Assembly: GCA_951406725.2 (NCBI GenBank)
Contig: OX597818.1
Location: 558,001 to 622,000 of the forward strand
From: Octopus vulgaris
Lineage: Eukaryota
Length of the DNA stretch: 64,000 nt
Direction of reading: 5' to 3'
The notes beneath the pieces were generated by a model that ran no database searches, was not told the origin of the DNA, and saw only the letters and a list, made by a program, of their open reading frames with translations. A program made the translations under genes and the position numbers. Of this stretch, positions 2,598 through 49,700 are shown piece by piece. How positions within the stretch are numbered: position 1 is the stretch's first letter; each line of letters begins with the position of its first letter.

Positions 2598-3153
2598 CTA
2601 TAACTCAAAGGTAATTGAAAAGAGACAAAACAAAACTTTTTATCCAAACACCTATTTTCATACAAATTTATTTCAACTGTAAACTTGATATAGAGACAGA
2701 AAAAATCTATTTTATATTTCATTGAATCAAATATAATCTAAAAAGACTGTAATTGCATTTAATCACTTTAGTAAGAGGTTTCAGTGATTTAACTATATTT
2801 TAATGAATAAAGTTAATTGTATATAATCAATAAAAACATTTTTGTTGATGCAAAATGCAGGCTATTTCAGAAGGTTACATTTAAGGCCTGGGTTTCCTGT
2901 CCCTCAGCTAATCTTTTGACAACTTGGACATCATTAAGTTTACATCTTGTTTCAGTAATTATGCTGTGCTCTCAAAACAAAATACAATACTTGCTTCAAT
3001 CCACTAATTAGAAATGGGAAAGATAACCATTTCTAAAACTTAACTTTCACTATATGCAGATATCCAAATATTTAAAACAAAAATTTTGTGTACCATTGTC
3101 CCACCCATGCCAGCATGGAAGGTGGACGTTAAACGATAATAAATAAATAATTA

Positions 3154-3385
3154 AGGCAGTGAGCTGGCAGAACCGTTAGCACGACGGGCGAAATGCATAG
3201 CCATATTTCGTCTGCCGTTATGTTCTGAGTTCAAATTCCGCCGAGGTCGACTTTGCCTTTCATCCTTTCAGGGTCGATAAATTAAGTACCAGTTACACAC
3301 TGGGGATCGATATAATCGACTTAATCCGTTTGTCTGTCCTTGTTTGTCCCCTCTATATTTAGCCCCTTGTGGGTAATAAAGAAAC
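3154..3385 (+). mobile_element. tRNA-derived SINE, family A, well-preserved copy
   Basis: A-box-like TGGCAGAACCGTTAG and B-box GAGTTCAAATTCC, followed by the central domain GCCTTTCATCCTTTCAGGGTCGATAAATTAAGTACCAG (resembles the Meta-type SINE domain, from recall). Many relatives in the window. Confidence 0.88.
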
Positions 3386-7115: not shown

Positions 7116-7315
7116 CCTTTATACTAAAAGCACAAAGCCTGAAATCAGTGGGGAGGGAACTAGTTGATTACATTGACCCCAATGATTCACCGTTACTTAA
7201 TTTATCAAGCCCAAAAGTATGAAAGGCAAAGTCAATCTCAGCAGAATTTGAACTCAGAATGTAGCAACGAGTGAAATACTGCTAAGCATTTCGTCCAGCG
7301 TACTAATGATTCTGC
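6632..7315 (-). mobile_element. Tandem array of three family-A SINEs separated by (TAA)n; the third copy is split by a DNA transposon and its head resumes at 8661-8683
   Basis: Three diverged repeats start CTTTCTACTATAGGCACAAGGCCTGAAAT at ~6632, ~6857 and ~7116, each containing the reverse B-box GAATTTGAACTCAGAA. Confidence 0.88.
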
Positions 7316-8660
7316 GGATCTTTTCAATTCTGAAGCCAGGACCACAGATCTTTCTACTTAACTAAATAATCTGAAACTTCGTATGCTGATAGAGTCTAGC
7401 AAAACAAGACACAGGTTGGAACTAGTTTATTTGAGAAAAATCTATTTTATGACTTTAATCGTAGATTAAAACTGCGAATTTTAACCAATCAGATTGTTTG
7501 TTTTCATGTGTAAAACTTGACTGCATTCTATTAGTGTGACGTAGAAAGCGCTTTTGTGACGTACTAACGTTCGGAAAACTGTAAACAAACACAGAACGTA
7601 ACGGCAGACGAAATACGGCTACGCATTTCGCCCGGCGTGCTAACGTTTCTGCCAGCTCTTTGCTTTTTTAATATTAAATTTCGGCGAAGTTTCGCTTGTC
7701 GTAGCACAAGTTTTCCGTCGATTTCCGTAAAAAACTTTTATTTTTTTACATTAGTAATGAGAGCGAAAGAGACTAAGAGGAAGCGATTTTATGACGAGGG
7801 AAGTTTGTCTTTGAAGTTACCGTCTAGGGGAAGCATTGATGTACATGTGTGTGTGTGTTTGATGGGGTGTGGGAGACAGTATGTTGTGTAAGTGAAGTGC
7901 TTCTGTTAGTGTGTGTGAAGAGACAGAGAGAGTAATGTGTGAAAGAGAGAGATAACTGAAATTTTTTACTCGGTGTATGTGTATATGTATGTCTGCATGT
8001 ATGTGTGTATGTATGTGTAAGTATGTATCTATGTATGTATGGCCGATTCATCGTAATTACGATGAATCGGCCATACATACATAGATACACACACACATAT
8101 ACATACATACACACACACACATACATGCAGACATACATATACACATACACCGAGTAAAAAATTTCAGTTATCTCTCTCTTTCACACATTACTCTCTCTGT
8201 CTCTTCACACACACTAACAGAAGCACTTCACTTACACAACATACTGTCTCCCACACCCCATCAAACACACACACACATGTACATCAATGCTTCCCCTAGA
8301 CGGTAACTTCAAAGACAAACTTCCCTCGTCATAAAATCGCTTCCTCTTAGTCTCTTTCGCTCTTATTACTTATGTAAAAATAAAACGAAAGCAAGTACTA
8401 ACTTGTTTACATTTAAGATGTTTAATACGTCACGAAATTGGTGGTCGAGACGGAGTAAATAAAATAAAGCCGAATGACGGAATATCATTGGTTAAAATTC
8501 TAATTATTAAACAACGTTAAACTTAGAAGTTACAATTCCGTTTTCATTCTGGTTTACAATTAAGTTTACTTTTGACACATTCTACCAGTATACGAAGTTT
8601 CAAATTGTTTGGTTCAGTAGGAAAAATTTGAAAAAACTGGCTTCAGAATAGAAAAGATCC
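7316..8660. mobile_element. Non-autonomous TIR DNA transposon (Mutator-like or Merlin-like) with a large internal palindrome
   Basis: Terminal 24-bp inverted repeats GGATCTTTTCAATTCTGAAGCCAG / CTGGCTTCAGAATAGAAAAGATCC (1 mismatch), with degenerate symmetry continuing ~270 bp. Exact 8-bp TSD GATTCTGC at 7308-7315 and 8661-8668; removing the element restores the SINE. Confidence 0.93.
7743..8380. repeat. Near-perfect spacerless palindrome with ~315-325 bp arms
   Basis: Centre GGCCGATTCATCGTAA|TTACGATGAATCGGCC at 8056/8057. The arms are reverse complements except in the (TG/TATG)n tract and a few outer bases. Confidence 0.97.
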
Positions 8661-8708
8661 GATTCTGCCAGCTCACTGCTTTAAAAATAATAATAATAAT
8701 AATAACAG

Positions 8709-10097: not shown

Positions 10098-10202
10098 TGT
10101 GGCAGGGAATATTTCTTGATCCCTATTCCTAACAGAACTGAGACATCATCATCATGTCGCATTTCTGTTAGGGATAGGGATCAAGGAATATTCCCTGCCA
10201 CA
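10098..10202. repeat. 105-bp hairpin (MITE-like) with TGT...ACA ends
   Basis: TGTGGCAGGGAATATTTCTTGATCCCTATTCCTAACAGAA pairs with TTCTGTTAGGGATAGGGATCAAGGAATATTCCCTGCCACA. Confidence 0.9.
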
Positions 10203-21449: not shown

Positions 21450-21706
21450 TTCGTTTTCGTCTCTTGTATTTACATCCGTCTCGTGCGTTCACATTCCTGT
21501 CTTCTACCAAGAAATCTAATGCTTACAGCTTAGTTTTTTCTTGGGGCTGGCGAGTTGGAGCAAATATCAGAATTGAACAGCCGAAATTTGCTATGATGAT
21601 TCGGTGTCTGACTGAAGATTGAAGGCTTCGAATGATTTGTCTGTGTTCCGTGTTCGTCCCTTCCTGTATTTCACGTTCATTATATATAAAAACATTTATT
21701 CTTATG
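21450..21706. repeat. CpG-retaining ~250-bp element flanked by (TA)n; possibly a Penelope pseudo-LTR
   Basis: Composition differs from the flanks and it is bounded by TA repeats on both sides. The class assignment is inference only. Confidence 0.35.
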
Positions 21707-23876
<2,170 letters not shown>

Positions 23877-26041
23877 CCTTAAATCCTTAAATCCTTAAAA
23901 ATGTTTTAGCCCGAAGGCCGCGGCCATGCTGGGGCACCACCGCTGAATGAGCCACACTAGTTTGTGAATCCACCTCTGATACGTGGCACTTGATCAACAA
24001 GGGAGTTCGATGCTGCTGCCCGCATCCGTGTCTCCTGTCGTGAGGTAGGTTCATCTGGGACTCCCAACAAGAAGAGATCCAGTTTAGTTTTAAAGAAACC
24101 CACATCCACACCATGTAAGTCTCTCAGGCATTTAGGGAGGATGTTGAAAAGCTGTGGTCCTCTGAAACCCAAGCTGTTGCAGTATCTGGACCTGTATTTT
24201 GATGGTGATGTTGGAATCCTTGGCACCACGCAGCGGCGCCCCGTTCTGCGGTTGGAGTAACTTTGAATGCCAAAGTTTGGGACAAGACCCTCCAGGATTT
24301 TCCAGATGTATATTACTGCATATCTCCCGCCTCCGCTCCAGGGAGAAGAGGTTTAATACCTTCAGTCTTTCCCAGTAGCTGACATTTTGCATTGAGACGA
24401 TTTTCTTTGTGTAGCTTCTCTGAGTTGCTTCGAGTTCTGCTGTTTGTTTTATATTGTGTGGTGACCAAAGTTGGGAGCAGTAGTCCAAGCGGCTGAGGAC
24501 AAATGTTTTCCATAGGACCATCAGTGTCTCCTTCTCTCTTGTTCTGAAAGTTCGGAGAATCCATCCAGCTAGCCGTCTGCATTTTATCACCAGATTAGCA
24601 ATATGCATTTGGAAAGATGCATCATTGCTCATGTCAATGCCCAGGTCACGCACTGATTTTGACTCAGGGATTGCAATTCTTCCTGGGCCAGTGTATCCAG
24701 TCTTCACGTCATTTACCTTTGTGTGCCAGTAGCGCAGGGCCTGGAACTTACCTGCATTAAACTGCATGTTGTTGTCCTCAGCCCACCTGTATATTGTGTC
24801 CAGCTCATGTTGCAGATGCGCAATATTTTCAGGGTTCTGTATTGCGTGGGAGACCTTTGTGTCATCTGCATAGCTAGCAAGGGTGGTCATCGTAGCAACT
24901 GAAGGCATGTCTGAAAGGGCCACTATGAACATCAGTGGCCCCAAGACAGTGCCCTGTGGGACACCGCTTGTTATTTGCGTTTCCCTGGAGGTGGCTCCAT
25001 TGCTCACAACTGCCTGTTTTCTGTCTTTTAGGAAGTTGTGCAGCCACTCTCCAAGTTTCCCGCCTATGCCGAGACCACGCAGTTTGTGACAGATCATACC
25101 ATGGTCGACTTTATCAAAGGCTTTTGCAAAGTCAAGATATATTACATCCACATTTGAGCCATTTAGTAGCTGTTTCAACACCCAGTCATAGTGTTGCAGG
25201 AGCTGTGTTAGGCAGCCTCTACCTGGTCGAAATCCATGCTGGGTGTCAGACAGTAAGTCATTTTCTTCAAGGAACATGATTAGTTTCTTACGGACTATTC
25301 GTTCCATGACTTTGCTGATGTGTGAGGTCAGAGAGATAGGCCTATAATTTTTAGCATCTGCTCTGCTACCTCCCTTATGGATAGGGCATATTACCCCCTC
25401 TTTCAGTTTGACTGGGAGCTTACCACTTGCAAGAAAGCTCTGAAAAAGAAGCTGTAGCGGTTTTGCAAGGGCTCGTTTGCACGATTTGAGAAGGATCGCT
25501 GGGAATCCATCAGGTCCAGCAGCTGAGTTTGTGTCAATCTCATCAATGGCTAGTGTGATATCATCTTCTTCGATGTTGATGTACTCAATTTTTGTCTCTT
25601 TGGCCGCTGGTAAAGTGGCAAAGAATTCTTCTGGGTTGTTTACTTGCCTATGTCCTAGAGCTGTAGTGAATACACTTTGGAACTGTTCGTTCAGTATTTC
25701 ACTTATCCTCGTGGGATTTCCTGTGAGAGAGCCATCTTTTTGGAAGAGAGGTCCTATTCTCTGGTGCACTGTGGCTGTCTCTTTGGCAAACTTAAAGAAA
25801 GCTTTAGGGTTTGATTTTATATTTTCTATTACCCAAGCTTCTTTATCTGCTCTCTCCTTTTCATGGGACTGATGTAGACTTTTCTCAGTTTCCATTAGCA
25901 TTCTTTCGAGCCGAGACTTCTCACCACTTTTGGTGTGCTTGCTCAGGCGGTTTGCAATCCTTGTCCGTCGTCTCATAAGAATCCTCCTTTCTCTAGGGAT
26001 CCTGTTTTTATTCTTGTGTGTGCTGGCCCTGCACATTGGGA
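23877..26041 (-). mobile_element. CR1/L2-group LINE, 5'-truncated, with a complete RT domain and (TTTAAGGA)n tail
   Basis: Motifs [39 protein letters not shown] and YADD (24861-24872). One frameshift near 24325; the C-terminus continues in ORF 23957-24229. Short 3'UTR and an 8-mer tail. Confidence 0.95.
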
Positions 26042-28902
<2,861 letters not shown>

Positions 28903-29429
28903 CTTGCCTCGCCTCGTATTGCATTTTCTGTATAATTTATTAGTTATTGTTGACCATCGGTTTCCGGCCTCGTGTCTCGCTAAATACAGAATAGATATTA
29001 AGTTTCTCCATACAGGGTTTTTTCAATGGCGGCCGATTTTCGCGGGGTTCCACTATTCCCTTCTCTGTCTCTCTCCCTCTTTTACGTTGTCTGCCCTCCC
29101 CCTCTTCCTTTCCCCCCTTCCATTGCTAAGAGCATTTTTAAGCCAGCCCGTCAAGTTCAACCTTCGCATATTCCCGGTGCACCCGCCCTTGCCCACCCCC
29201 ACCACCAATACCGGATATCTCTATATTTTTGCTCCATCTATACCGTATGTCGCTTCTCCCACCACCATTATAGGTGTCTACTCTTCGAACCCCCCTCTTC
29301 AATACGCTATTTCACCATGCATTACCCCTCTCGTGATATCCTACGTTCTACTTGTCTAGAACCTGTCATCGTTTCTCCGAACACCCCTCCCCACTGGTGC
29401 TCCCCTATATTTCTGCACCATCCCTCCAC

Positions 29430-29736
29430 AAAAAGCACCATCCGAACGTGGCCGATGCCAGCACCGCCCCGACTGGCTCCTGTGCAGGTGGCACATAAAA
29501 AGCACCAACTGACCGTGGCCGATGCCAGACCCCTCTGGCACTTGTGCAGGTGGCACGTAAAAAGCACCCACTACACTCGCGGAGTGGTTGGCGTTAGGAA
29601 GGGCATCCAGCTGTAGAAACACTGCCAGACCAGACTGGAGCCTGGGGCAGCCCTGGCTCCCCAGACCCCGGTCGAAACCGTCCAACCCGTGCTAGCGCGG
29701 AAAACGGACGTTAAACGATGATGATGATGATGATGA
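29430..29736 (+). mobile_element. RTE 3'UTR fragment with (GAT)n tail (duplicated at ~38543-38850)
   Basis: AAAAAGCACC subrepeats and the shared RTE 3' terminus. Confidence 0.9.
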
Positions 29737-29747
29737 TATATATATAC

Positions 29748-30027
29748 ACAAAATTTAGAGGAATGACCACTAATAGTGGACAGCCTGTATGCTAGATATA
29801 GACATCAAACTCGTCATTTACCATGAAGAATGTGTTTCTTGAGAACACATTCTTCATGGTAAATGACTAGTTTGACGTCTATATCTAGCATACAAGCTGT
29901 CCCCTATTAGTGGTCATTCCTCTAAATTTTGTATGTATAAAATTTTTAATCTTCGGATTTTTAAAAAATATGCTAGACCACTGGTTTTAATTGATTAATA
30001 TCAATTTCTACCCTTATTTAATCTTAT
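29748..30027. mobile_element. Fold-back element (185-bp hairpin 29748-29932 plus unpaired extension) flanked by (TA)n; probably an inverted Penelope-like terminal repeat (duplicated at ~38862-39141)
   Basis: ~90-bp arms around GAAGAATGTGTT-TCTTGAG-AACACATTCTTC. The class is inferred from the architecture. Confidence 0.6.
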
Positions 30028-31170
30028 ATATATATATATATATATATATAAATGTAGCAGGCATGAACAGCATGCCTAGGATATCTCAGTGTATTTAGTG
30101 GGACATCCCCTTCTTTATGCATAGACTTGATGTGATACAAACTGCATGCATTGATGCACAAAATCCAACCTATAATGGACAGCTGCAGGATGGGTTGAAA
30201 CAATTATCACACTATTTTTCATTTTTATAATCAATTATTATCAATAATATTAATACGCTTAGTTTTGTTTGTTTTTGTATGTACCTGTGGTGTGTGTCAC
30301 ACTTACTTCAAAGGAAGAAGTGAGTGGAGAAATGAGTGGCAAAGCAAGAGAGAGGAAGACAGAGAGGAAGTAAGAGATAGAGTGAGAGAGAAAGAGAGAG
30401 ATTGAAAGAGACAGTGAGTGGTAACAGCATTCATTTTGTGTTTTTAAATGTTTATCACATCGCAAGAAAAGTAGGTACATACACACATTTTTAAATTAAA
30501 AGCGGGAGAGAGGATGGACACAGTGGAAGTGAAAGAGAAAGAGAGAAAGTGAGAGAGACAGTAGATACATAGATCCAGAGAAAAGGTGATACATAGATAC
30601 ATAGACACAGCAAATATTGCTTGTCATTTTCACTTTTCATTACCACACCAAGATAAAATTAACTCGCAAGTGGCTAAGTACTCCAGACATGCATATCATT
30701 AATGTAGCTCTCAGGGAGATTCAGTTTTACACAGAATATGACAAAGCTGGCCCCTTTGAATTTACAGCTACAACTCATTTTGACCAACTGAGTGGACTAG
30801 AGCAAAATAAACCTGCAAGTGGTTGGAAGAAAATGAAAAAAAGATCCTATATGGAGCAGGAAAATCTTATTAGTCGTTAGGGTCACTATGGGTGTTAATC
30901 CAGTCCTAACAGTGGCATCTGTGGGTCTCACAGATCTGTAGGCCAAGCCCCCAGATAAACACCAATGCGCAGGCTGTTATCAAACTGAGTGTGAGTCAAG
31001 GGCGAATACACAACAGAATAGCAATTATTTCGTCTTAGCTTTCACTGCTTATATTAAACACATTTTTGCCTTACCATATGGAACATTTCTTTTTCTTTCA
31101 CTCTTTTTAAAAAATGGCACTCCATCAGTTAAGACAACGAGGTTCCTGTTTATCTGATCAATGGAGCAGT

Positions 31171-31379
31171 CTCTTTTACTCTTTTACTTGTTTCTGTCAT
31201 TTGACTGCAGCCATGCTGGAGCACCGCCTTTAGTCGAGCAACTCGACCCTGGCACTTATTCTTTGTAAGCCCAGTACTTATTCTATCGGTCTGTTTTGCC
31301 GAACCGCTAAGTGACGGGGACATAAACACACCAGCATCGGTTGTCAACCAATGCTAGGGGGACAAACACAGACACACAA

Positions 31380-31434
<55 letters not shown>

Positions 31435-31596
31435 TACGACGGGCTTCTTTCAGTTTCCGTCTACTAAATCCACTCACAAGGCTTTGGTCAGCCCGAGGCT
31501 ACAGTAGAAGACACTTGCCCAAGGTGCCATGCAGTGGGATTGAACCCGGAACCATGTGGTTGGTAAACAAGCTACTTACTACACAGCCACTCCTGC
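31171..31596 (-). mobile_element. Full-length family-B SINE with CR1/L2-type tail (duplicated at ~40289-40714)
   Basis: Reverse strand reads GCAGGAGTGGCTGTGTAGTAAG (A box), GGTTCAATCCC (B box), CORE-like CACCTTGGGCAAGTG, internal (TA)n(TG)n, and 3' GGTGCTCCAGCATGGCTGCAGTC...(GTAAAAGA)n. Confidence 0.92.
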
Positions 31597-31607
31597 TCAT
31601 AAAATTA

Positions 31608-31859
31608 ATGCACAAGTAGCTGAGTACTCCACAGACATGCATACCCTAAGTTAGTTCTCAGGGAGATTAAGCCTCACACAGAATGTGACAAGGCTGGCCC
31701 CTAAGAATTACAGTTACAACTCATTTTTGCCAGCTGAATAAACTGCAACAAGGTGAAGTAGAATACATTGCTCAAAAACACAGCACGCCACCCAGAATTG
31801 TACTCGTGAGTTTACAATAATGGGCCGAATACCCCTAACCACTGAGCCACGCACCTTCA
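31608..31859 (-). mobile_element. tRNA-derived SINE, family C (partial copies at ~30660-30810 and ~10765-10850; duplicated at ~40726-40977)
   Basis: Reverse strand starts TGAAGGTGCGTGGCTCAGTGGTTAGGG, followed by CAGCTGGCAAAAATGAG and a distinct 3' part. Confidence 0.75.
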
Positions 31860-32334
31860 GTCACTTAACTGTAGAGAAAAGGAGTGAAGTGATAGAAACA
31901 GAGAAAGGAAAGCCTCAGTCATTTACAATGACAGACTGAAATACAATTGATCTTTTCTCACTTCTTTACTTTTAACAATGAAGAAGAGAAAGTCTTTCAG
32001 GTGTTTACGTTTTTATTCTGGAAGTTCTAGAATGAGCGACTGTTAGTTCTCTCTTCTTTCCCACAACCCCAGTACTTATTCGACTTCTTTTATAGTATTT
32101 CATGTCTTTTAGTTGGGGGGAAAGACCATGTTCCTTTTTCAGGTACATTTAATGAATTCTCTACAAACGAGCCTCCCTCCCTCCCCTTTTATTTTCATAC
32201 AAAAACTAATGCAAATTTTGAACAGGGTATAGCTGTGAAAAGAGCCCAGAAAATTGGGTAATGCCCCCTACAAAATGGGTGAGGGAGAAAAGTTGCCAAC
32301 AGGTGACTACACGAAATTGAACTCTATATTTTAA

Positions 32335-32655
32335 AGAGTATCTTCTACAATAGCCTCGGGCTGACCAAAACCTTGTGAGTGAATTTGGTAGATGGAAACT
32401 GAAAGAAGCCCATCATATATATTATATATCTGCATGTGTGTGCTTGTATCTGTGTTTGTCCCCCAACCACCATTGTTTGACAACCAATGTTGGTGTGTTT
32501 GCATCCCCGTAATGCAGCTGTTTGGCAGAAGGGACTGATAGAATAAGCACCAGGCTTACAAGGAATAAGTCCAGGGGTTGATTTCGTTAACTAAAGGGTG
32601 GTGCTCCAGGATGGTCACCATCAAATGACTGAAACAAGTAAAAGAATAAAAGAAT
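32335..32655 (+). mobile_element. 5'-truncated family-B SINE with CR1/L2-type tail (duplicated at ~41455-41775)
   Basis: TCTTCTACAATAGCCTCGGGCTGACC...GGTGGTGCTCCAGGATGG...GAAACAAGTAAAAGAATAAAAGAATA. Confidence 0.85.
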
Positions 32656-33387
32656 ACCAGAAGAACATTCTGGTACCACTAAACAAAGAAGGTTCTTTAA
32701 ATATGTACGATGTATTTTAAGGCTAAATAGTAATTCTGTTTACATTTGCGTAACAGATATTTTGGTTAGATTATATAGTTATCGGTTTTTCGCTTCTTTC
32801 TATATTCTCTAAGTGTCACAATATAGAAACATTTCTCATGGCACCAGCACATAATTTGCAGATGCTTACACTTTTTGTTTTCCATGAATTTTTCACAGGG
32901 CCAGCTAGTCATTATTATTATTAAATAAGTTAATATTTAAGTGTTAGGTATGTTCCTAGTAGTATGCCAATAAAGCACATTCACTGCCTATGGCTAGATG
33001 CACCACAACTAGTTGTATAGTTTCCCATCTACAAGGGATTGATGCAGGATATGTCGAAATGATCATTGTGAACAATAATGTTTCCCGTGTATTCCATTTT
33101 CCATTTCTATCATTTGCTTTATATATATTTAATTACCATCAATATCATCATTATTTTAAAATTCACTTTCTTATGCTTACATGGGTCAAATAGTCGAAAC
33201 AGGGTTTCTATTGCTGGATACCTTTCCTGTCACCAAGCCTTATCTGTTTTCAAGCAAAGTAATATTTCCTCTTGGCCAAACATGTTTTTCATGGAAGACT
33301 GGAAACGAATACCACTACTTGCATATCAGTGACATTCATTTCCAACTATTGTGTGATGTCAAAACAAGGTCACTCACACACACACAT

Positions 33388-33435
<48 letters not shown>

Positions 33436-33991
33436 CTGAGTTCAACTATATAAATGCCTCATCAGCAATAACATATAACATCAAACTGAAACTAGTAGGA
33501 TCAATTCAGATTCTTGATATTCTTCTTTACTAATCTGATTAGAGCAATATATAATCTACAGCTTAAGATGTCATACACAAGACATCATATTTAATTTGTC
33601 TCTAATAGATATATATACTCACAGTACTCTTTGCTGTTGTTATTTACTGTTGTATATAATTTACAGCTTAAGATGTTGTACACAAGATATCGTATTTAGT
33701 TTTTCTTTAATAGTTATATACCTTCAGCAATCCCTGTTGTTGTTTTGCCTCAAGCCAGTCTTGACTGAACAGGCAAATGAGCAAAGGCTTTGCAACAATG
33801 GCTCTTTTATTAACATAGCATTCATTTTTTTAAAGATTGTACTATATGGTTTGAGATTTGGCTGTTATTTCAAATTGATTGGACAACCACATAAAGGCTC
33901 CTCAAAAAGTTTCCAGAATGTTTACAACCCTAGCACTTCATTACAAACTGTCTTGGTCATAATACTAATACTACTACAAATAATGATAAGC

Positions 33992-34587
33992 CTTTCTACT
34001 ATAGGCACAAGGCCTGAAATTTAGGGGGAAAGCGCTAGTTAATTACATCTATCCCAGTGCAAAACTGATACTTAATTTATCAACCCTGAAAGAACAAAAG
34101 GCAAAGTCTAACCTTAGCAGAATATGACCTCAGAACATAAAGACAGATTAAATGCCTCTAACCATTTTGTCCAGTGTGCTTCTTTCTACTATAGACACAA
34201 GACCTGAAATTTTGGAGTAGGGAGCTGGTCGACTACATTGACACCAATACTTAACTGATACTTATATTATTGACCCCAAACGAATGAAAAGGAACGTCAA
34301 CATCAGAGGAATAAAAATAGTAATGACTGATATTAAAATTTTGAAATAATTTTTAATAATTATATTACTGGGTTCAAATTTTGGCCTAAGGCCAGGAATT
34401 TCAGACAGGAGGGGTGGGTGGGGGTAAGTCGACCCCAGTATTCAATTGTTACTTATTTTATCAACCCTAAAAGGATGAAAGGCAAAATCAACCTTGGTGG
34501 AATTTGAACTCAGAATATAAAGACAGATGAAATGCTGTTAATCATTTTGCCCAGTGTGCTAGCGATTCTGCCAATTCACCGCCTTAA
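33992..34587 (-). mobile_element. Cluster of three family-A SINEs (duplicated at ~43113-43708)
   Basis: Same units as at 6632-7315. Confidence 0.82.
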
Positions 34588-35199
34588 CAACAACAGCAGC
34601 AACATCACCACCACCACCACCAATTTGTTAATTAAATCAATTTGTATGAAGTGTGGGTATTAGTGTCTGAATGTGATGTTGGCATCAAATGGGTGTGGCT
34701 AGCCTCTACGACATATTTGTTCTAAGAGAGAGAGAGAAAGACAGACAGAAAGAGATAAAAGATGATCTTGAATGACTTCAATTAATTAATCTGTTAATAA
34801 TTATTTCAAACAGTGGGATGGCTTTATATAGAGTATCAGAAGATAAACTGAATGTGTAGTATCTTCAATAGGGGTCAAAGCCAATTTCATCTAGAATTTT
34901 TTGATAGTATCAAATGCAATAATAGTGGTACCTTATGTTCAATCTTTTAATTACTTCCTGCTGATACAAGACTGAAGTAAAGTAAGACTAATATGCAATG
35001 CACATACTATGTACAACAATATAATTGAAGTCCAGGAGCTAGGTCCAGCATATGCCTGAAATCAAAATCTAGACAAAGAGTTCCATGAGAAAACACAAAT
35101 GTAGCCTAAGTAAGACAAAATCTCAGAGAACTTTAACCTCATCTTGACAGAAAATTATATACAACAGAATATAAGAAAATTCAAAGCAGCAAAGAAAAT

Positions 35200-36870
35200 T
35201 CTTAATGAGACATATTTGATGGAGCAGAAAAAAATATGTTGAAAAGCAAGATAAAAGAAATAGAGAATGTGCAGGAAAATCAGTAATCCAGACTGCTATG
35301 AGCCACAATTGATGAAGTTTTAGGGAGGAAGAAGATCAACTCTAATCTGATAAAAGCTAAAAGTGCTGAAAGAAAAGAGTAGCTCTTTGGAGGAAGCATT
35401 TCCAGAACCTAGCAAAGCCAAACCCTAATGGTTGCTGATGTCCAAATTTTAAAAAAATGTAACACACCTTCCCAATAGAAATTGGAGCACTTATAATGGA
35501 AGAATTAAAACTTGCTATCAAAGAAATAAAGAACAACAAGGCCCCCAGGGCTTGATGAGATTCCAGCTGAAGTTTGGAAAAGTAACAAATTAAGTGAACA
35601 ACTACTGGAGATTTACAATGAAAGAATTGAAGGAGATGTAGCAACGGTATGGAGACAGGGAGGGATCTTACCATTTTCAAAGAAAGGTAACTTAACATCT
35701 ATAGGAAACTAAAGAGGCAGCAGAAATTTATAAAATGCTCCCGAATAGAATAAGGCCTCATGTTCATTTGCTTCTACACAAACAACAAAATGGATTTTGG
35801 AAAAAGGAGAACAATAACAGCACAGATACTAGCACTAAGGTTATTCATTGAAGGTATCAAACCAAAACAGCTTCCAGTAGTACTGGCATTCATAGACTCT
35901 GAAAGACTTTTCACTCGATCCATAGTGATAAGGTAATGGATATCTTGGTTACTTATGGAACCCCAGGAAAATGGTCTTGGCTATTGAAGTAATCTACAAA
36001 GATATTCCTCTGAAGGTAGTACCTCTTGATGGCAACACTGAGTCCTTTGAAATTATGTCAGGAGTACTTCAAGCTGACATTCTTGCCCACTTCTTATTCA
36101 TAATAGCACTAGACTATATGAGGAAAAAAAATCATGAAACCTTTGGCTTTAGCTTACAACAAGCAGAACTTCTCACAGATACAAATTATATATTGATGAC
36201 AGTGTTATCTTAAACGATAAAACAAGCCCAACTGTTTTTATTGTGAGTTGAGTCCTGTACTTCACAGACTGGCTTACATACAAATGAGGTAAAAATTAAA
36301 TATATGGCTTATGACCAAGAAGATAGCTTCCAATTAACAATGAATAGTTATGAAATGGAAAAAGTTGATGATTTATTCTTATCTGAGATGATGGGCGAAT
36401 ACAAGTGAGGACAATAAAACTTGGAACATTAAATCTAAACAGATTTTAAGATTAGCTTCTTCCACGTAACAATAGAAACTGTGCTCTTATTTGACTGCAC
36501 TACATGGACTCTAACTAAGGAACTGGAAAAAAAACTAGAAGAAACACACAAGACTTGTAAGAGCAGCACTTATCAAATAACATTGACAGGTTCTCTATTG
36601 TAATCTTCCAAGAGTTACCACCACCATAAAGGAAAGAAGACTAGGATTCTGTGGACATTGTTCTCATGGCAAGGATGAAATAGTCAAATGCTGATGTGGG
36701 AATCAACACATGTAAAGTAACCTAAGAGCTGTCTCACCAGGACATTTATTGATCAACTGGTTGAAAACTTTGGTTGATTGAAGAGTGGTCTACAAAGAGC
36801 AATGCAGGAGAGGGAATTCTAGAGACAAGTGGTTGATGGTGCTTGTCTGCAGATAACATGATGATGAAGA
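35200..36870 (+). mobile_element. Highly decayed RTE-like LINE RT region (duplicated at ~44320-45993)
   Basis: Broken translation LWRKHFQNL, ELKLAIKEIKNNKAP, QQNGF, VLAFID, SGVLQADILAHFLFIIALDY, ERRLGFCGHC; ends in ATGATGATGA. Confidence 0.8.
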
Positions 36871-36899
36871 CTAACGGTGGGGGGAAGTCAATAAATCCT

Positions 36900-37190
36900 A
36901 CCAATACCTACATGTTACCATTAACACTACTATTAACAAAGCCCACACTACCTCTGACTACACTACCATTAACACTACTGACACTGCCATGAACACTACC
37001 ACAAACTAGACAACTACTGCCTAAAGTAAAATTTATACAGCCACTACTCACACAACCCATTACTCGACAATTAACACTAACACTATCCAAAGTGCATTAA
37101 CACTATGTCTACCTACATTGGTATTAACACTACCACACAACCATTAACACTGCTACTACAACCAATAATGCTATCAGCACTAGTCAATAT
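36900..37190. repeat. Degenerate CCATTAACACTA/ACT-rich tandem repeat (duplicated at ~46023-46313)
   Basis: Recurring CCATTAACACTAC motif. Confidence 0.7.
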
Positions 37191-37399
37191 ATGCACTGCC
37201 ACAATTTTTGAACATTTGTTTAAAATATTGCAAATTATCTAAATTAATGAAATTGATTTATTCTAGAGTGAATAATAAAAACTGATAATAACAATAAAAT
37301 TAATCTATTATTACAATTAGTCATAAATATCCAACAACAAAATGTTAAAAATTGTCATGTTTCATTAACATAATTTATACTGCCTGTAATAAATTCTTA

Positions 37400-38395
37400 A
37401 AAGAGAAAGATGGCTGCTTATAAATGCCAAAACCTTCCCAGGCGAAGAATGCACCCCACAACATAGACTGGTAGTTAGTGACTTTAGGATCAGGACTAAG
37501 AGGGCGACTAGAAGACGACCAACAAGGAGAAGAAGGGTCTGGAAGCTTAAAGACCCTGCGAATGGACAGAGATTTAGAGACATGATACTTGAAGCTTTTG
37601 ACGAAATGGAAGGGGGTATAGCTACACATGGGGTAGAAGACAACTGGACGCTTCTGAGGGACAACCTGCTGAAAGCCACTGACCAGATCTGTGGCTGGTG
37701 CAAAGTCCCCTTAAGACCCAAAATAACGTGGTGGTGGAACAATATTGTTGACAGGGCTATTAGACAAAAGAAACAGGCTTGGAAGGACTGGAAGAACGGT
37801 GGTAGCAGGAAGTGTATCAGACTGCCAGAAGGGAAGCTAGGAGACAGGTCTATCTAGCCAGAGGGGAAGCAGATAAGAAAAATTTGCCAATGTTCTGCGC
37901 TGTGAGGATGAAAGACTTGAGGTATTTCGTGTTGCAAGACAGTGTGTGAGAGAGAATCGTGACGTGGTAGGAGAGAAATGTGTTCGCAAGGATGACGGTT
38001 CACTTGCACTAAATGAGGATGCAAAGAGAGAGGCTTGGAGACGCCACTATGAAAGGTTGCTGAATGAGGAAAATGATTGGGATAAAGAGAGTCTGCCGAA
38101 TGTCGACCCAACAGAGGGACCAGCAATCCGAGTTAATAGTTCCTTAGTAGTTAAGGCAATTACAAGCATGAAAACATGGAAAGCCCCAGGCCCATCAGGA
38201 ATTACTGCAGAGATGCTCAAAATATCTGGTAGTGTCGGCTATAGCCTAGTCACCCGTATAGTTAACCAGGTGATACACGAAGGAGTCATACCCAATGACT
38301 GGTGTAGCAGCATAATAGTCAACTGCTACAAAGGTAAAGGTGACGCCCTAGATACAAATAACTACAGGGGTATCAAGCTGCTGGATCAGGTAATG
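37400..38395 (+). mobile_element. RTE LINE, partial duplicate of 46523-47519, cut by the gap
   Basis: Identical to the later copy apart from a homopolymer indel near 37880 and a T/C change near 38136. Confidence 0.93.
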
Positions 38396-38495
38396 NNNNN
38401 NNNNNNNNNNNNNNNNNNNNNNNNNNNNNNNNNNNNNNNNNNNNNNNNNNNNNNNNNNNNNNNNNNNNNNNNNNNNNNNNNNNNNNNNNNNNNNN
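38396..38495. other. Assembly gap (100 N)
   Basis: Run of exactly 100 n. Confidence 1.
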
Positions 38496-39136
38496 CCCTC
38501 CCCACTGGTGCTCCCCTATATTTCTGCACCATCCCTCCACATAAAAAGCACCATCCGAACGTGGCCGATGCCAGCACCGCCCCGACTGGCTCCTGTGCAG
38601 GTGGCACATAAAAAGCACCAACTGACCGTGGCCGATGCCAGACCCCTCTGGCACTTGTGCAGGTGGCACGTAAAAAGCACCCACTACACTCGCGGAGTGG
38701 TTGGCGTTAGGAAGGGCATCCAGCTGTAGAAACACTGCCAGACCAGACTGGAGCCTGGGGCAGCCCCTGGCTCCCCAGACCCCGGTCGAAACCGTCCAAC
38801 CCGTGCTAGCGCGGAAAACGGACGTTAAACGATGATGATGATGATGATGATATATATATACACAAAATTTAGAGGAATGACCACTAATAGTGGACAGCCT
38901 GTATGCTAGATATAGACATCAAACTCGTCATTTACCATGAAGAATGTGTTTCTTGAGAACACATTCTTCATGGTAAATGACTAGTTTGACGTCTATATCT
39001 AGCATACAAGCTGTCCCCTATTAGTGGTCATTCCTCTAAATTTTGTATGTATAAAATTTTTAATCTTCGGATTTTTAAAAAATATGCTAGACCACTGGTT
39101 TTAATTGATTAATATCAATTTCTACCCTTATTTAAT

Positions 39137-39171
<35 letters not shown>

Positions 39172-40497
39172 GTAGCAGGCATGAACAGCATGCCTAGGAT
39201 ATCTCAGTGTATTTAGTGGGACATCCCCTTCTTTATGCATAGACTTGATGTGATACAAACTGCATGCATTGATGCACAAAATCCAACCTATAATGGACAG
39301 CTGCAGGATGGGTTGAAACAATTATCACACTATTTTTCATTTTTATAATCAATTATTATCAATAATATTAATACGCTTAGTTTTGTTTGTTTTTGTATGT
39401 ACCTGTGGTGTGTGTCACACTTACTTCAAAGGAAGAAGTGAGTGGAGAAATGAGTGGCAAAGCAAGAGAGAGGAAGACAGAGAGGAAGTAAGAGATAGAG
39501 TGAGAGAGAAAGAGAGAGATTGAAAGAGACAGTGAGTGGTAACAGCATTCATTTTGTGTTTTTAAATGTTTATCACATCGCAAGAAAAGTAGGTACATAC
39601 ACACATTTTTAAATTAAAAGCGGGAGAGAGGATGGACACAGTGGAAGTGAAAGAGAAAGAGAGAAAGTGAGAGAGACAGTAGATACATAGATCCAGAGAA
39701 AAGGTGATACATAGATACATAGACACAGCAAATATTGCTTGTCATTTTCACTTTTCATTACCACACCAAGATAAAATTAACTCGCAAGTGGCTAAGTACT
39801 CCAGACATGCATATCATTAATGTAGCTCTCAGGGAGATTCAGTTTTACACAGAATATGACAAAGCTGGCCCCTTTGAATTTACAGCTACAACTCATTTTG
39901 ACCAACTGAGTGGACTAGAGCAAAATAAACCTGCAAGTGGTTGGAAGAAAATGAAAAAAAGATCCTATATGGAGCAGGAAAATCTTATTAGTCGTTAGGG
40001 TCACTATGGGTGTTAATCCAGTCCTAACAGTGGCATCTGTGGGTCTCACAGATCTGTAGGCCAAGCCCCCAGATAAACACCAATGCGCAGGCTGTTATCA
40101 AACTGAGTGTGAGTCAAGGGCGAATACACAACAGAATAGCAATTATTTCGTCTTAGCTTTCACTGCTTATATTAAACACATTTTTGCCTTACCATATGGA
40201 ACATTTCTTTTTCTTTCACTCTTTTTAAAAAATGGCACTCCATCAGTTAAGACAACGAGGTTCCTGTTTATCTGATCAATGGAGCAGTCTCTTTTACTCT
40301 TTTACTTGTTTCTGTCATTTGACTGCAGCCATGCTGGAGCACCGCCTTTAGTCGAGCAACTCGACCCTGGCACTTATTCTTTGTAAGCCCAGTACTTATT
40401 CTATCGGTCTGTTTTGCCGAACCGCTAAGTGACGGGGACATAAACACACCAGCATCGGTTGTCAACCAATGCTAGGGGGACAAACACAGACACACAA

Positions 40498-40552
<55 letters not shown>

Positions 40553-42506
40553 TACGACGGGCTTCTTTCAGTTTCCGTCTACTAAATCCACTCACAAGGC
40601 TTTGGTCAGCCCGAGGCTACAGTAGAAGACACTTGCCCAAGGTGCCATGCAGTGGGATTGAACCCGGAACCATGTGGTTGGTAAACAAGCTACTTACTAC
40701 ACAGCCACTCCTGCTCATAAAATTAATGCACAAGTAGCTGAGTACTCCACAGACATGCATACCCTAAGTTAGTTCTCAGGGAGATTAAGCCTCACACAGA
40801 ATGTGACAAGGCTGGCCCCTAAGAATTACAGTTACAACTCATTTTTGCCAGCTGAATAAACTGCAACAAGGTGAAGTAGAATACATTGCTCAAAAACACA
40901 GCACGCCACCCAGAATTGTACTCGTGAGTTTACAATAATGGGCCGAATACCCCTAACCACTGAGCCACGCACCTTCAGTCACTTAACTGTAGAGAAAAGG
41001 AGTGAAGTGATAGAAACAGAGAAAGGAAAGCCTCAGTCATTTACAATGACAGACTGAAATACAATTGATCTTTTCTCACTTCTTTACTTTTAACAATGAA
41101 GAAGAGGGAAAGTCTTTCAGGTGTTTACGTTTTTATTCTGGAAGTTCTAGAATGAGCGACTGTTAGTTCTCTCTTCTTTCCCACAACCCCAGTACTTATT
41201 CGACTTCTTTTATAGTATTTCATGTCTTTTAGTTGGGGGGAAAGACCATGTTCCTTTTTCAGGTACATTTAATGAATTCTCTACAAACGAGCCTCCCTCC
41301 CTCCCCTTTTTTTTCATACAAAAACTAATGCAAATTTTGAACAGGGTATAGCTGTGAAAAGAGCCCAGAAAATTGGGTAATGCCCCCTACAAAATGGGTG
41401 AGGGAGAAAAGTTGCCAACAGGTGACTACACGAAATTGAACTCTATATTTTAAAGAGTATCTTCTACAATAGCCTCGGGCTGACCAAAACCTTGTGAGTG
41501 AATTTGGTAGATGGAAACTGAAAGAAGCCCATCATATATATTATATATCTGCATGTGTGTGCTTGTATCTGTGTTTGTCCCCCAACCACCATTGTTTGAC
41601 AACCAATGTTGGTGTGTTTGCATCCCCGTAATGCAGCTGTTTGGCAGAAGGGACTGATAGAATAAGCACCAGGCTTACAAGGAATAAGTCCAGGGGTTGA
41701 TTTCGTTAACTAAAGGGTGGTGCTCCAGGATGGTCACCATCAAATGACTGAAACAAGTAAAAGAATAAAAGAATACCAGAAGAACATTCTGGTACCACTA
41801 AACAAAGAAGGTTCTTTAAATATGTACGATGTATTTTAAGGCTAAATAGTAATTCTGTTTACATTTGCGTAACAGATATTTTGGTTAGATTATATAGTTA
41901 TCGGTTTTTCGCTTCTTTCTATATTCTCTAAGTGTCACAATATAGAAACATTTCTCATGGCACCAGCACATAATTTGCAGATGCTTACACTTTTTGTTTT
42001 CCATGAATTTTTCACAGGGCCAGCTAGTCATTATTATTATTAAATAAGTTAATATTTAAGTGTTAGGTATGTTCCTAGTAGTATGCCAATAAAGCACATT
42101 CACTGCCTATGGCTAGATGCACCACAACTAGTTGTATAGTTTCCCATCTACAAGGGATTGATGCAGGATATGTCGAAATGATCATTGTGAACAATAATGT
42201 TTCCCGTGTATTCCATTTTCCATTTCTATCATTTGCTTTATATATATTTAATTACCATCAATATCATCATTATTTTAAAATTCACTTTCTTATGCTTACA
42301 TGGGTCAAATAGTCGAAACAGGGTTTCTATTGCTGGATACCTTTCCTGTCACCAAGCCTTATCTGTTTTCAAGCAAAGTAATATTTCCTCTTGGCCAAAC
42401 ATGTTTTTCATGGAAGACTGGAAACGAATACCACTACTTGCATATCAGTGACATTCATTTCCAACTATTGTGTGATGTCAAAACAAGGTCACTCACACAC
42501 ACACAT

Positions 42507-45500: not shown

Positions 45501-47519
45501 CTTATCTGAGATGATGGGCGAATACAAGTGAGGACAATAAAACTTGGAACATTAAATCTAAACAGATTTTAAGATTAGCTTCTTCCACGTAACAATAGAA
45601 ACTGTGCTCTTATTTGACTGCACTACATGGACTCTAACTAAGGAACTGGAAAAAAAACTAGAAGAAACACACAAGACTTGTAAGAGCAGCACTTATCAAA
45701 TAACATTGACAGGTTCTCTATTGTAATCTTCCAAGAGTTACCACCACCATAAAGGAAAGAAGACTAGGATTCTGTGGACATTGTTCTCATGGCAAGGATG
45801 AAATAGTCAAATGCTGATGTGGGAATCAACACATGTAAAGTAACCTAAGAGCTGTCTCACCAGGACATTTATTGATCAACTGGTTGAAAACTTTGGTTGA
45901 TTGAAGAGTGGTCTACAAAGAGCAATGCAGGAGAGGGAATTCTAGAGACAAGTGGTTGATGGTGCTTGTCTGCAGATAACATGATGATGAAGACTAACGG
46001 TGGGGGGAAGTCAATAAATCCTACCAATACCTACATGTTACCATTAACACTACTATTAACAAAGCCCACACTACCTCTGACTACACTACCATTAACACTA
46101 CTGACACTGCCATGAACACTACCACAAACTAGACAACTACTGCCTAAAGTAAAATTTATACAGCCACTACTCACACAACCCATTACTCGACAATTAACAC
46201 TAACACTATCCAAAGTGCATTAACACTATGTCTACCTACATTGGTATTAACACTACCACACAACCATTAACACTGCTACTACAACCAATAATGCTATCAG
46301 CACTAGTCAATATATGCACTGCCACAATTTTTGAACATTTGTTTAAAATATTGCAAATTATCTAAATTAATGAAATTGATTTATTCTAGAGTGAATAATA
46401 AAAACTGATAATAACAATAAAATTAATCTATTATTACAATTAGTCATAAATATCCAACAACAAAATGTTAAAAATTGTCATGTTTCATTAACATAATTTA
46501 TACTGCCTGTAATAAATTCTTAAAAGAGAAAGATGGCTGCTTATAAATGCCAAAACCTTCCCAGGCGAAGAATGCACCCCACAACATAGACTGGTAGTTA
46601 GTGACTTTAGGATCAGGACTAAGAGGGCGACTAGAAGACGACCAACAAGGAGAAGAAGGGTCTGGAAGCTTAAAGACCCTGCGAATGGACAGAGATTTAG
46701 AGACATGATACTTGAAGCTTTTGACGAAATGGAAGGGGGTATAGCTACACATGGGGTAGAAGACAACTGGACGCTTCTGAGGGACAACCTGCTGAAAGCC
46801 ACTGACCAGATCTGTGGCTGGTGCAAAGTCCCCTTAAGACCCAAAATAACGTGGTGGTGGAACAATATTGTTGACAGGGCTATTAGACAAAAGAAACAGG
46901 CTTGGAAGGACTGGAAGAACGGTGGTAGCAGGAAGTGTATCAGACTGCCAGAAGGGAAGCTAGGAGACAGGTCTATCTAGCCAGAGGGGAAGCAGATAAG
47001 AAAAAATTTGCCAATGTTCTGCGCTGTGAGGATGAAAGACTTGAGGTATTTCGTGTTGCAAGACAGTGTGTGAGAGAGAATCGTGACGTGGTAGGAGAGA
47101 AATGTGTTCGCAAGGATGACGGTTCACTTGCACTAAATGAGGATGCAAAGAGAGAGGCTTGGAGACGCCACTATGAAAGGTTGCTGAATGAGGAAAATGA
47201 TTGGGATAAAGAGAGTCTGCCGAATGTCGACCCAACAGAGGGACCAGCAATCCGAGTTAACAGTTCCTTAGTAGTTAAGGCAATTACAAGCATGAAAACA
47301 TGGAAAGCCCCAGGCCCATCAGGAATTACTGCAGAGATGCTCAAAATATCTGGTAGTGTCGGCTATAGCCTAGTCACCCGTATAGTTAACCAGGTGATAC
47401 ACGAAGGAGTCATACCCAATGACTGGTGTAGCAGCATAATAGTCAACTGCTACAAAGGTAAAGGTGACGCCCTAGATACAAATAACTACAGGGGTATCAA
47501 GCTGCTGGATCAGGTAATG
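38496..47519 (+). repeat. Copy 2 of the ~9-kb duplication
   Basis: Starts at the gap edge, collinear with 29385-38395, and continues seamlessly into the rest of the RTE. Confidence 0.98.
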
Positions 47520-49700
47520 AAGGTTACGGAGAGGGTTATAGCCCAATTAATTAGAGAGAGAGTTAGCTTAGATGAGATGCAGTTTGGGTTCGTGCCAGGG
47601 AAAAGTACTACTGATGCTATATTCCTGTTAAGACAGCTGCAGGAGAAATACCTAGCCAAAGATAAGCCCCTGTACCTGGCTTTTGTTGACATGGAGAAAG
47701 CCTTTGACAGGGTCCCCCGATCCCTTATCTGGTGGTCAATGAGGAAACTAGGGATAGATGAATGGTTAGTGAGAGCTGTGCGAGCCATGTACAGAGACGC
47801 TGCTAGTAAGGTGAGGGTTGGCAACGAGTACAGTGAAGAATTCCGGGTAGAGGTTGGGGTCCACCAAGGTTCAGTCCTCAGTCCCCTCCTATTTATCATA
47901 GTCCTCCAGGCAATAACGGAGGAATTCAAGACAGGATGCCCCTGGGAGCTCCTCTATGCTGATGACCTTGCTCTAATTGCTGAGTCACTATCAGAACTCG
48001 AGGAGAAGTTTCAGGTGTGGAAACAAGGATTAGAATCGAAGGGACTTAGAATCAACCTAGCCAAAACCAAAGTTCTAATAAGTAGGAAGGTGGACCAATC
48101 ACAAACGACTTCAGGTAGATGGCCCTGCTCGATCTGTAAAAAAGGTGTAGGTAGAAACTCTATAAGGTGCACCAAGTGTAAGCTATGGACACATAAGAGG
48201 TGCAGCAATGTCAAAGGAAGGCTAACTAGGAAAATAGTTTTTGTCTGTGGCAGATGCTCAGGAGCAATAAACACTGGAAATGTGCAGAGACCAACTTCTA
48301 CCACGTTCCAGGGAGACAAACTAGAAGTAGTTGATAGCTTCCGCTACCTAGGTGACCAAGTCAGTAGTGGGGGTGGGTGTGCTGAAAGTGTAACTGCTAG
48401 AGTAAGAATAGCCTGGGCAAAGTTTAGAGAGCTCTTACCCCTGCTGGTGACAAAAGGCCTCTCGCTCAGAGTAAAAGGCAGACTGTATGATGCATGTGTA
48501 TGTACAGCCATGCTACATGGTAGTGAAACATGGGCCGTGACTGCTGAGGATATGCGTAAGCTCGCAAGAAATGAAGCCAGTATGCTCCGATGGATGTGTA
48601 ATGTCAGTGTTCATAATCGACAGAGTGTAAGTACCTTGAGAGAAAAGTTGAACCTAAGAAGCATCAGTTGTGGTGTGCAAGAGAGACGTCTGCGCTGGTA
48701 TGGTCATGTGACGAGAATGGCTGAAGATAGTTGTGTGCAAAAGTGCTACACCCTAGCAGTTGAGGGAACCTGTGGAAGAGGTAGACCCAGGAAAACCTGG
48801 GACGAGGTGGTGAAGCACGACCTTCGAACTTTAGGTCTCACCAAGGAAATGACTAGAGACCGAGACCTATGGAAGTATGCTGTGCGTGAGAAGACCCGGC
48901 AAGACTAGTGAGGTCATAACCCGTGGCCTCTACCTGCCAATCCCTAGCAGTGGAGGGAACCCATGGAAGAGGTAGACCCAGGAAAACCTGGGACGAGGTG
49001 GTGAAGCACGACCTTCGAACTTTAGGTCTCACTGAGGAAATGACCAGCGACCGAGACCTTTGGAAATATGCTGTGCGTGAAAAGACCAGGCAGGACAAGT
49101 GAGTCCAGCCCACTTATGCATGCCTTTCCTCCCTTGGACACACAAAGACCTGTTGAGGCAAGCGAAGTCAATATCGAACCTTATTCGACGACAGGCACCT
49201 ATGCCAACCCTCCTTTGCTTGCGAAGACCTGTTGGGGCAAGTGAAATCGAAATCGGAATCAAAATTGAACCAATCCTATGACTGGCACCCGGCAGATGCC
49301 AGGACCCCTGGACTGGAGATACGTAAAAAGCAATATCCGAATCGTGGCCGATGCCAGCGCCGCCTCGACTAGCTTCCGTGTCGGTGGAACGTAAAAAGCA
49401 CCATCCGAATCGTGGCCGAAGCCAGTGCCGCCTCGACTGGCTTCTGTACCGGTGGCACGTAAAATGCACCAATCCGACCGTGGCCGATGCCAGCCTTGCC
49501 TGGCACCAGTGCAGGTGGCACGTAAAAAGCACCTACTACACTCACGGAGTGGTTGGCGTTAGGAAGGGCATCCAGCTGTAGAAACATTGCCAGATAAGAC
49601 CGGAGCCTGGTGCAGCCTTCTGGCTTCCCAGATCCCCAGTCGAACCGTCCAACCCATGCTAGCATGGAGAACGGATGTTAAACGATGATGATGATGATGA
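46523..49700 (+). mobile_element. Young RTE-clade LINE, 5'-truncated at the end of the APE domain, with long 3'UTR and (GAT)n tail
   Basis: APE C-terminus (INAKTFPGEECTPQHRLVVSDF), a frameshift near 46935, an intact RT, 3'UTR subrepeats and tail. Confidence 0.96.
46935..48908 (+). CDS. RTE reverse transcriptase ORF remnant (657 open codons) with an inserted PHD-type zinc finger
   Basis: NYRGIKLL, QFGFVPGKSTTDAIF, AFVDMEKAFDRV, GVHQGSVLSP, YADD (47955-47966), FRYLG, GRGRPRKTW. No true start because the element is truncated. Confidence 0.9.
   Translation: MYQTARREARRQVYLARGEADKKKFANVLRCEDERLEVFRVARQCVRENRDVVGEKCVRKDDGSLALNEDAKREAWRRHYERLLNEENDWDKESLPNVDPTEGPAIRVNSSLVVKAITSMKTWKAPGPSGITAEMLKISGSVGYSLVTRIVNQVIHEGVIPNDWCSSIIVNCYKGKGDALDTNNYRGIKLLDQVMKVTERVIAQLIRERVSLDEMQFGFVPGKSTTDAIFLLRQLQEKYLAKDKPLYLAFVDMEKAFDRVPRSLIWWSMRKLGIDEWLVRAVRAMYRDAASKVRVGNEYSEEFRVEVGVHQGSVLSPLLFIIVLQAITEEFKTGCPWELLYADDLALIAESLSELEEKFQVWKQGLESKGLRINLAKTKVLISRKVDQSQTTSGRWPCSICKKGVGRNSIRCTKCKLWTHKRCSNVKGRLTRKIVFVCGRCSGAINTGNVQRPTSTTFQGDKLEVVDSFRYLGDQVSSGGGCAESVTARVRIAWAKFRELLPLLVTKGLSLRVKGRLYDACVCTAMLHGSETWAVTAEDMRKLARNEASMLRWMCNVSVHNRQSVSTLREKLNLRSISCGVQERRLRWYGHVTRMAEDSCVQKCYTLAVEGTCGRGRPRKTWDEVVKHDLRTLGLTKEMTRDRDLWKYAVREKTRQD

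Follow-up and report, generated by a model that had tools for sequence, protein, structure and literature searches.

We analysed a 64,000-nucleotide window of contig OX597818.1 of Octopus vulgaris, which carries a 1345-bp insert at 7316-8660 that starts with GG and ends with CC. The insert is bounded on either side by an identical 8-mer (7308-7315 and 8661-8668, + strand), i.e. an exact 8-bp target site duplication (TSD), for which the computed chance at this place is ∼1e-5. Its ends form 24-bp terminal inverted repeats (TIR) with one mismatch between left and right, the left core lying at 7316-7339 (+). A search with the 24-bp pattern returned two matches in the window versus none in 100 shuffles, and the window holds a single copy of the element. 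The insert splits a SINE of a TAA-tailed family, the 5′ part of which lies at 7116-7315 (+) and the 3′ end, with the TAA tail, at 8669-8700 (+). When the element and one TSD are removed, the SINE is restored and becomes collinear with all three neighbouring copies aligned. Four to five copies of this family stand head-to-tail at 6598-7315/8661-8860, one of them being the insertion target. None of the 10 frames of at least 50 aa within the element matches Pfam, and no transposase was found. The insert in the SINE is a cut-and-paste DNA transposon that is non-autonomous (gene-less). An earlier reading of the letters alone (the sequence-only reading) had proposed an insert of this size with 24-bp TIRs, an exact 8-bp TSD and a split SINE, had concluded that it arrived by transposition, and had noted that it encodes no transposase; the TSD, the TIR search, the restored SINE and the Pfam result bear out each of these claims.

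Inwards of the termini, the outer arms extend as long, diverged TIRs at 7316-7587 (+) and 8403-8660 (−, the CC end). They are 78% alike over the first 91 columns and agree at 122 of 180 aligned letters (68%) over ∼185 bp. A weaker homology reaches further in, to 7587/8403, with scores attained by 0/500 and 1/500 shuffles, in agreement with the diverged outer TIRs of ∼270 bp described before. The best-paired block of the outer duplex is 7351-7404 (+), which pairs with 8570-8623. Next to the left TIR lies a feature that had been overlooked, a captured 3′ fragment of a SINE (7588-7677, +) present in the left arm only. It belongs to the same family as the target SINE and is 89% alike to the SINE copy at 3153-3231. 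It is followed by a one-sided continuation of the inner repeat (7678-7735, +), which has no mirror copy here.

The interior of the element is a spacerless palindrome of about 640 bp that occupies 7736-8385 and is centred on 8056|8057. Its left arm (7736-8056, +) contains a TGTA-type microsatellite at 7974-8041; its right arm (8057-8385, −) is connected to the right TIR by a short junction (8386-8402) that is variable among family members. The arms are identical over 249 bp (7760-8008), and a 33-bp stretch around the centre is also perfect, with differences starting in the microsatellite that flanks it. Apart from this microsatellite, the only differences between the arms lie in the outer 25 bp, where there are two substitutions and one small indel. 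The nearly perfect, spacerless palindrome of the sequence-only reading therefore stands, with 249 bp free of mismatches. Its statement that almost the whole element is self-complementary holds for the arms and has to be qualified for the rest. Most of the element is inverted repeat, with a predicted fold of −777 kcal/mol on the + strand and −762 on the − strand, and 79% of bases are paired in the predicted minus-strand fold; ∼230 bp (7588-7735, which includes the SINE fragment, 8386-8402, and gaps) have no self-complementarity. An Rfam search gave 18 matches, all below the gathering score and mostly to miRNA models on the microsatellite hairpin, which were rejected.

To place this copy in a wider context, we turned to public sequencing runs. 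Of the 24 runs listed, 20, from 9 studies and under 4 organism labels, contain 55-76% of the sampled words. None of the runs on record as containing it is listed as RNA, which carries no weight on expression. Seven of the 24 were compared, five as contigs (X1, X9, X13, X16, and X19) and two as raw reads (X21 and X22), with X13 compared on both stretches. The comparison covered the element on either side of 7968-8289, the stretch that contains the centre of the palindrome. Minus-strand contig records were read from the larger coordinate, which was checked on two X13 records ending at 8456 around one SNP; X1 was read to 80%, and summed contig depth was used as a weak hint, not as a copy number. 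At the left end, one X13 contig agrees with 7316-7617 except for 1 of 302 letters, and past 7316 it carries 30 letters of other sequence; in an X19 contig the match spans 7316-7489, with 58 letters of other sequence past 7316. At the opposite end, the match of an X13 contig to 8585-8660 is free of differences and gives way to 30 other letters past 8660. The match stops exactly at 7316 in 2/2 contig runs and at 8660 in 1/4 runs. Because three contigs from two runs leave the element at one of its termini and enter other flanks, the element belongs to a multi-site family. Loose ends at 8570-8614 in all four right-half runs belong to related TIR families, which share this stretch but have homologous, different ends, and these are far deeper than the arm of this subfamily. 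In X21 and X22, only 3 and 9 of 12.9 million raw reads each fall on the element stretch, all of them on SINE parts. These two runs share the species label of the best-matching run and have almost no SINE reads, so that label probably covers different organisms.

The same contigs bear on the history of the arms. The X13 contigs match both outer arms of the window at 527/528 letters, and the 68% likeness between left and right was therefore inherited from a parent element and gives no date for the present copy. The two apparent ages read earlier from the diverged outer and nearly perfect inner repeats thus cannot be taken as ages of this copy, the outer divergence being inherited. Since the left TIR and the SINE fragment are continuous in an X13 contig, the capture of this fragment preceded at least part of the spread of the family. 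Interiors vary within the family, as an X19 contig departs from the window sequence after 7573. As for the inner repeat, its commoner form carries ∼21 letters that are absent from both arms (13 X1 contigs, with a loose end behind 8371), which indicates that both arms come from one template. Relative to that commoner form, each arm has one private substitution, and both lie in the outer 20 of 269 positions (P ∼0.006). This pattern suggests an older duplication whose inner part was later re-copied or converted.

The junctions between inner arm and right TIR differ among sister copies. In X13 and X9, which come from different studies and carry different labels (2/4 runs), contigs join 8322 to 8402 via 27 other letters. 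Contigs starting at 8293 in both runs place a branch at 8322|8323, with one path leading into left-arm sequence and the other into the right TIR. This branch shows that sister copies hold the inner sequence inverted beside the right TIR, in a form in which the right arm ends at 8322. X16 has no such branch, and its window-type junction (8388-8401) is covered at the same figure as the right TIR; 227 inner letters of a 399-letter X16 contig have no assigned place. Cover of the window's own right junction (8388-8400) is close to nil in X13 and X9 and thin in X1, where the window-type junction stands at 340 versus 27,000-42,000 alongside. The left-type junction, with the one-sided continuation joined to the inner arm, is present in X9 and X16. 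No contig or read in the runs compared spans both arms or the centre, and the presence of both arms in one sister copy is therefore deduced from the branches of the graph; neither the run contigs nor the 64-kb window revealed a second full copy with its own TSD. Together, these junctions indicate that the family probably shares the palindrome, though with an edge that varies. The proposal that the element is mobile as a unit with the palindrome inside is thus probable, considering the other flanks at both termini and the sister copies in which inner arm and right TIR are joined, with the qualification that no single record spans both arms.

The termini offer some indication of the superfamily. 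The 5′-GG ends and the 8-bp TSD correspond to the definition of Merlin (8- or 9-bp TSD, PMC8101967), and the long TIRs with an 8-bp TSD to that of MULE (8-11-bp TSD, PMC6446971). Merlin elements, as described in the accessible part of the former source, resemble the element further in TIR length (24-462 bp), in imperfect TIRs with an unclear inner limit, and in internal tandem repeats. In contrast to them, the element has no linked DDE_Tnp_IS1595 transposase, and the start of its TIR is absent from 11 supplement files of that paper. MULE/Mutator elements, including Phantom and Spectre, share with it the long TIRs, the 8-11-bp TSD, and the capture of foreign DNA, and their TIR promoters and fold-back RNA are discussed in PMC6446971. 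Unlike them, the element again lacks a linked transposase, and most MULE groups in the part consulted of a table in that source have 9-bp TSDs. Merlin is abundant in O. bimaculoides, with 191 sequences (PMC8101967), and the recently active families counted in O. vulgaris include 2 Merlin, 21 Mutator, and 49 unclassified TIR families (PMC13282606, accessible part). Compared with the MuDR likeness drawn earlier, the end features slightly favour Merlin. The transposase that would mobilise the element through its GG…CC ends, and would come from elsewhere, is more probably of Merlin type, possibly of MULE type, and with little probability of another type. The 24-bp TIR pattern has no match in metagenome or viral contigs, and the inner-arm pattern none in metagenome contigs.

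In overall design, the element is of the foldback or extended-TIR type, a kind already known, and fits Galileo 2RT. As described in the parts consulted of PMC3573991 and PMC4168063, the Galileo 2T and 2RT elements of Drosophila are likewise non-autonomous TIR elements, consist almost entirely of inverted repeat and have 7-8-bp TSDs; they have recruited internal DNA or pieces of other transposable elements into both arms and exchanged interiors between subfamilies. On the other hand, Galileo is a member of the P superfamily and its TIRs are 98-100% alike within a copy, whereas the outer TIRs here are 68% alike and end in GG…CC, with one-sided cargo between outer TIR and inner palindrome and a centre without spacer. 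Whole-foldback MITEs (PALTA, PALTTAA, Mirza, Cele7, and Hairpin; PMC3814204, accessible part) are also gene-less and fold back over their whole length, but the present element is longer (1.35 kb), has an 8-bp TSD, and is built in two layers with SINE cargo. A literature search, with Repbase, Dfam and the O. vulgaris repeat library outside its scope, returned no description of this octopus family, which may already be catalogued.

The explanation that we consider probable, without regarding it as settled, is that the element is one copy of a multi-site, gene-less TIR family, that repair or conversion in a parent copy gave rise to its inverted interior, and that this interior is likely carried passively. 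A transposase supplied from elsewhere would move the element through its GG…CC ends. The parent would have acquired the SINE piece together with a piece of the commoner repeat that bears the microsatellite. Template switching while a gap was repaired is one way for this to happen, and it has been proposed as the origin of whole-hairpin MITEs (PMC3814204). An inverted copy of the acquired repeat piece may then have been made through fold-back or arm-to-arm repair. This has been proposed for whole-hairpin MITEs and for Galileo, where, in the published model, internal DNA is copied during repair that uses the other TIR, which generates a TIR1-F1-F1-TIR2 structure (PMC3573991), and where copies with another transposable element incorporated in both TIRs are reported (PMC4168063). 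Later re-copying or deletion would have shifted the palindrome edge, which lies at 7801/8322 in X13 and X9 and at about 7740/8385 here. Excision of MULE, hAT, and Transib elements leaves hairpin-sealed ends on the flanking DNA (PMC5499845), and by analogy we speculate that the zero-spacer centre could stem from copying through such a sealed end. A transcribed copy would yield an RNA duplex of >300 bp, most likely A-to-I edited rather than diced, and no host function would be required at any step. Seen this way, the element is an ordinary case of a gene-less transposon turning into a hairpin, in which the steps are legible as inherited asymmetric TIRs, SINE capture and a moving palindrome edge.

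Other origins of the palindrome have to be weighed against the same junctions. The inner block could be a mobile element in its own right (a head-to-head pair of Penelope type with a tail on one side, an independent palindromic MITE, or a Helentron-like repeat) that was nested in the transposon and then carried along. In Penelope elements, an inverted pLTR pair has head-to-head arms with a one-sided tail, and the hammerhead or the TSD can be absent; the one-sided extension at 7678-7735 resembles such a tail. In 5/5 contig runs (X1, X9, X13, X16, and X19), depth over the inner arm is also 5 to 200 times that of the TIR next to it, a weak measure that fits a nested element equally well. The related TIR families, however, are about as deep or deeper at 8570-8614, and the inner DNA may thus be their interior. 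Moreover, the block has no TSD longer than 6 bp around it (the 6-bp one is A-rich and chance-like) and no hammerhead core, either by pattern or among the 18 sub-threshold Rfam matches, and its right edge differs among sister copies. We therefore regard a nested element as unlikely. Formation of the palindrome at this locus only, by fold-back repair after the insertion of a copy from an otherwise non-palindromic family, is less probable still. It would account for 249 bp without mismatch and for a right junction that has no cover in X13 and hardly any in X9, but in the sister forms of those two runs the inner arm lies next to the right TIR in the orientation of the right arm, and X16 covers the window-type junction. 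At the 0.19% divergence seen relative to X13 contigs, zero differences in 249 bp has P ∼0.6, so the identity of the arms does not require an origin after insertion. It is highly improbable that the inner palindrome is a fold-back artefact of sequencing or assembly. The palindrome centre lies beyond the run comparison, and a further assembly problem is likely elsewhere in the window, namely a tandem duplication of 9.0 kb, 99.8% identical (29385-38395/38496-47519), across a 100-N gap, probably an assembly or haplotype duplication. Against an artefact, the arms differ in structured ways (microsatellite length and the two private substitutions), the sequence re-enters the right TIR of the family, the TSD and the remaining SINE, and both types of arm-to-flank junction occur in short-read contigs.

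The sequence-only reading had described the TIRs as mirror-image and promoter-like. Candidate motifs facing inwards are indeed present at the level of sequence. A CCAAT-box-like motif occurs in both TIRs (7483-7491 on +, mirrored at 8485-8493 on −, i.e. starting at 7483 and 8493), with 0.019 expected per 270 bp. TGACGT (CRE-like) motifs occur twice on the left, within 7537-7562 (at 7537 and 7557, +), and once in mirror position on the right (8427-8432, −, starting at 8432), with 0.025 expected per 270 bp. There is no TATA-type motif in the element, and these inward motifs could be sites for a transposase or a host factor instead of a promoter. A sigma-70 scan, irrelevant for an animal, gave 4 sites versus 4.3 expected and was set aside. 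The host intron from which a transcript had been envisaged is not demonstrable: 0/195 frames (116 + 79) reach the Pfam cut-off in a set without low-complexity frames, the region 21.6-28.9 kb, and those frames whose start lies in the duplicated stretch 38.4-47.4 kb. Three weak matches fall below threshold, and a long intron would be compatible with this result.

These findings leave little room for the earlier suggestion of a silencer like Mu killer, in which a hairpin transcript would be diced to siRNAs that silence its own transposon family. In its favour are the long predicted duplex, the inward CCAAT and TGACGT motifs in both TIRs and outer arms that consist of family sequence. Mu killer is likewise an inverted duplication within a TIR element, but it duplicates the transposase gene mudrA together with TIRA at a single locus, owes its transcript to read-through from a flanking gene, and acts in trans as a silencer (PMC3440606, accessible part). 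The perfect duplex of the octopus element is non-coding, with no transposase sequence duplicated, and no driving transcript, host gene or host exon was found (0/195 frames). In addition, a survey reports, in the part accessible and with caveats on sensitivity that leave rare cell types possible, no dedicated siRNA pathway in molluscs (PMC12479628), which speaks against endo-siRNAs there. A Mu-killer-like siRNA source is therefore unsupported here and, in our view, extremely unlikely.

The other proposed role, an ADAR substrate if transcribed, is plausible. ADAR prefers A:C mismatches and a 5′ U. The X19 sister-copy contig has 6 differences in 174 letters, and the four listed (7352, 7359, 7363, and 7367) are all T>C, i.e. 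A>G on the minus strand, inside the best-paired TIR duplex. Of the 56 adenosines in 7316-7489, just two, at 7363 and 7367, lie opposite a C in the predicted fold (P ∼0.004), and for the four sites a span of 16 bp has P ∼0.002; the 5′ neighbours of these sites (U, U, U, and A) are not significant (P 0.18). Speaking against editing, the right TIR also has C at the sites corresponding to 7363 and 7367, so that a genomic variant or a conversion tract would fit, and the RNA status of X19 is a guess, without matched DNA on that half. Furthermore, X13 lacks these changes and the X19 inner-arm contigs listed carry no substitutions. The arguments for and against RNA editing at these sites are about evenly balanced, and they provide one weak hint beside the precedent from palindromic DNA transposons. 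The palindromic Harbinger repeat of Xenopus, a self-folding DNA transposon that likewise forms dsRNA without an inverted neighbour, is a demonstrated ADAR target (PMC5625713, accessible part), whereas the evidence here is a four-site hint in one contig. In the same comparison, octopus is exceptionally rich in self-folding repeats and in hyper-editing, its repeats being unassigned there (PMC5625713). A bolder version, which we consider rather unlikely, is a self-transcribing mobile hairpin, with the 68%-alike TIRs, both of which retain inward CCAAT and CRE motifs, acting as convergent promoters and each insertion delivering an ADAR substrate in which the mismatch-rich outer duplex is selectively edited and the perfect inner duplex hyper-edited. 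If true, the family would seed RNA-editing sites across octopus genomes, and the X19 changes would be a first trace. The element will matter more if transcribed copies prove to be edited, given the high level of hyper-editing in octopus, and a young family with polymorphic insertions would allow the step from a new insertion to new editing sites to be tested directly.

The surroundings of the element are repeat-rich animal DNA. Four further palindromes of 80-210 bp are present (29741-29939, with a copy at 38855-39053; 59398-59605; 10098-10202; and 59775-59857), and hairpin-shaped repeats are therefore common in the window. Two inverted pairs (31172/32653 and 59221/60810) were considered as long-TIR elements and rejected, since each reads as a dispersed repeat present twice in opposite orientation and lacks a convincing TSD. 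TA-rich microsatellite arrays of 2-3 kb occupy 21703-23876 and 26043-28900, and between them, on the minus strand at ∼24100-26000, lies a reverse-transcriptase frame that by eye appears to be of LINE type. A 659-aa open frame at 46929-48908 likewise resembles, by eye, an RTE-type LINE reverse transcriptase.
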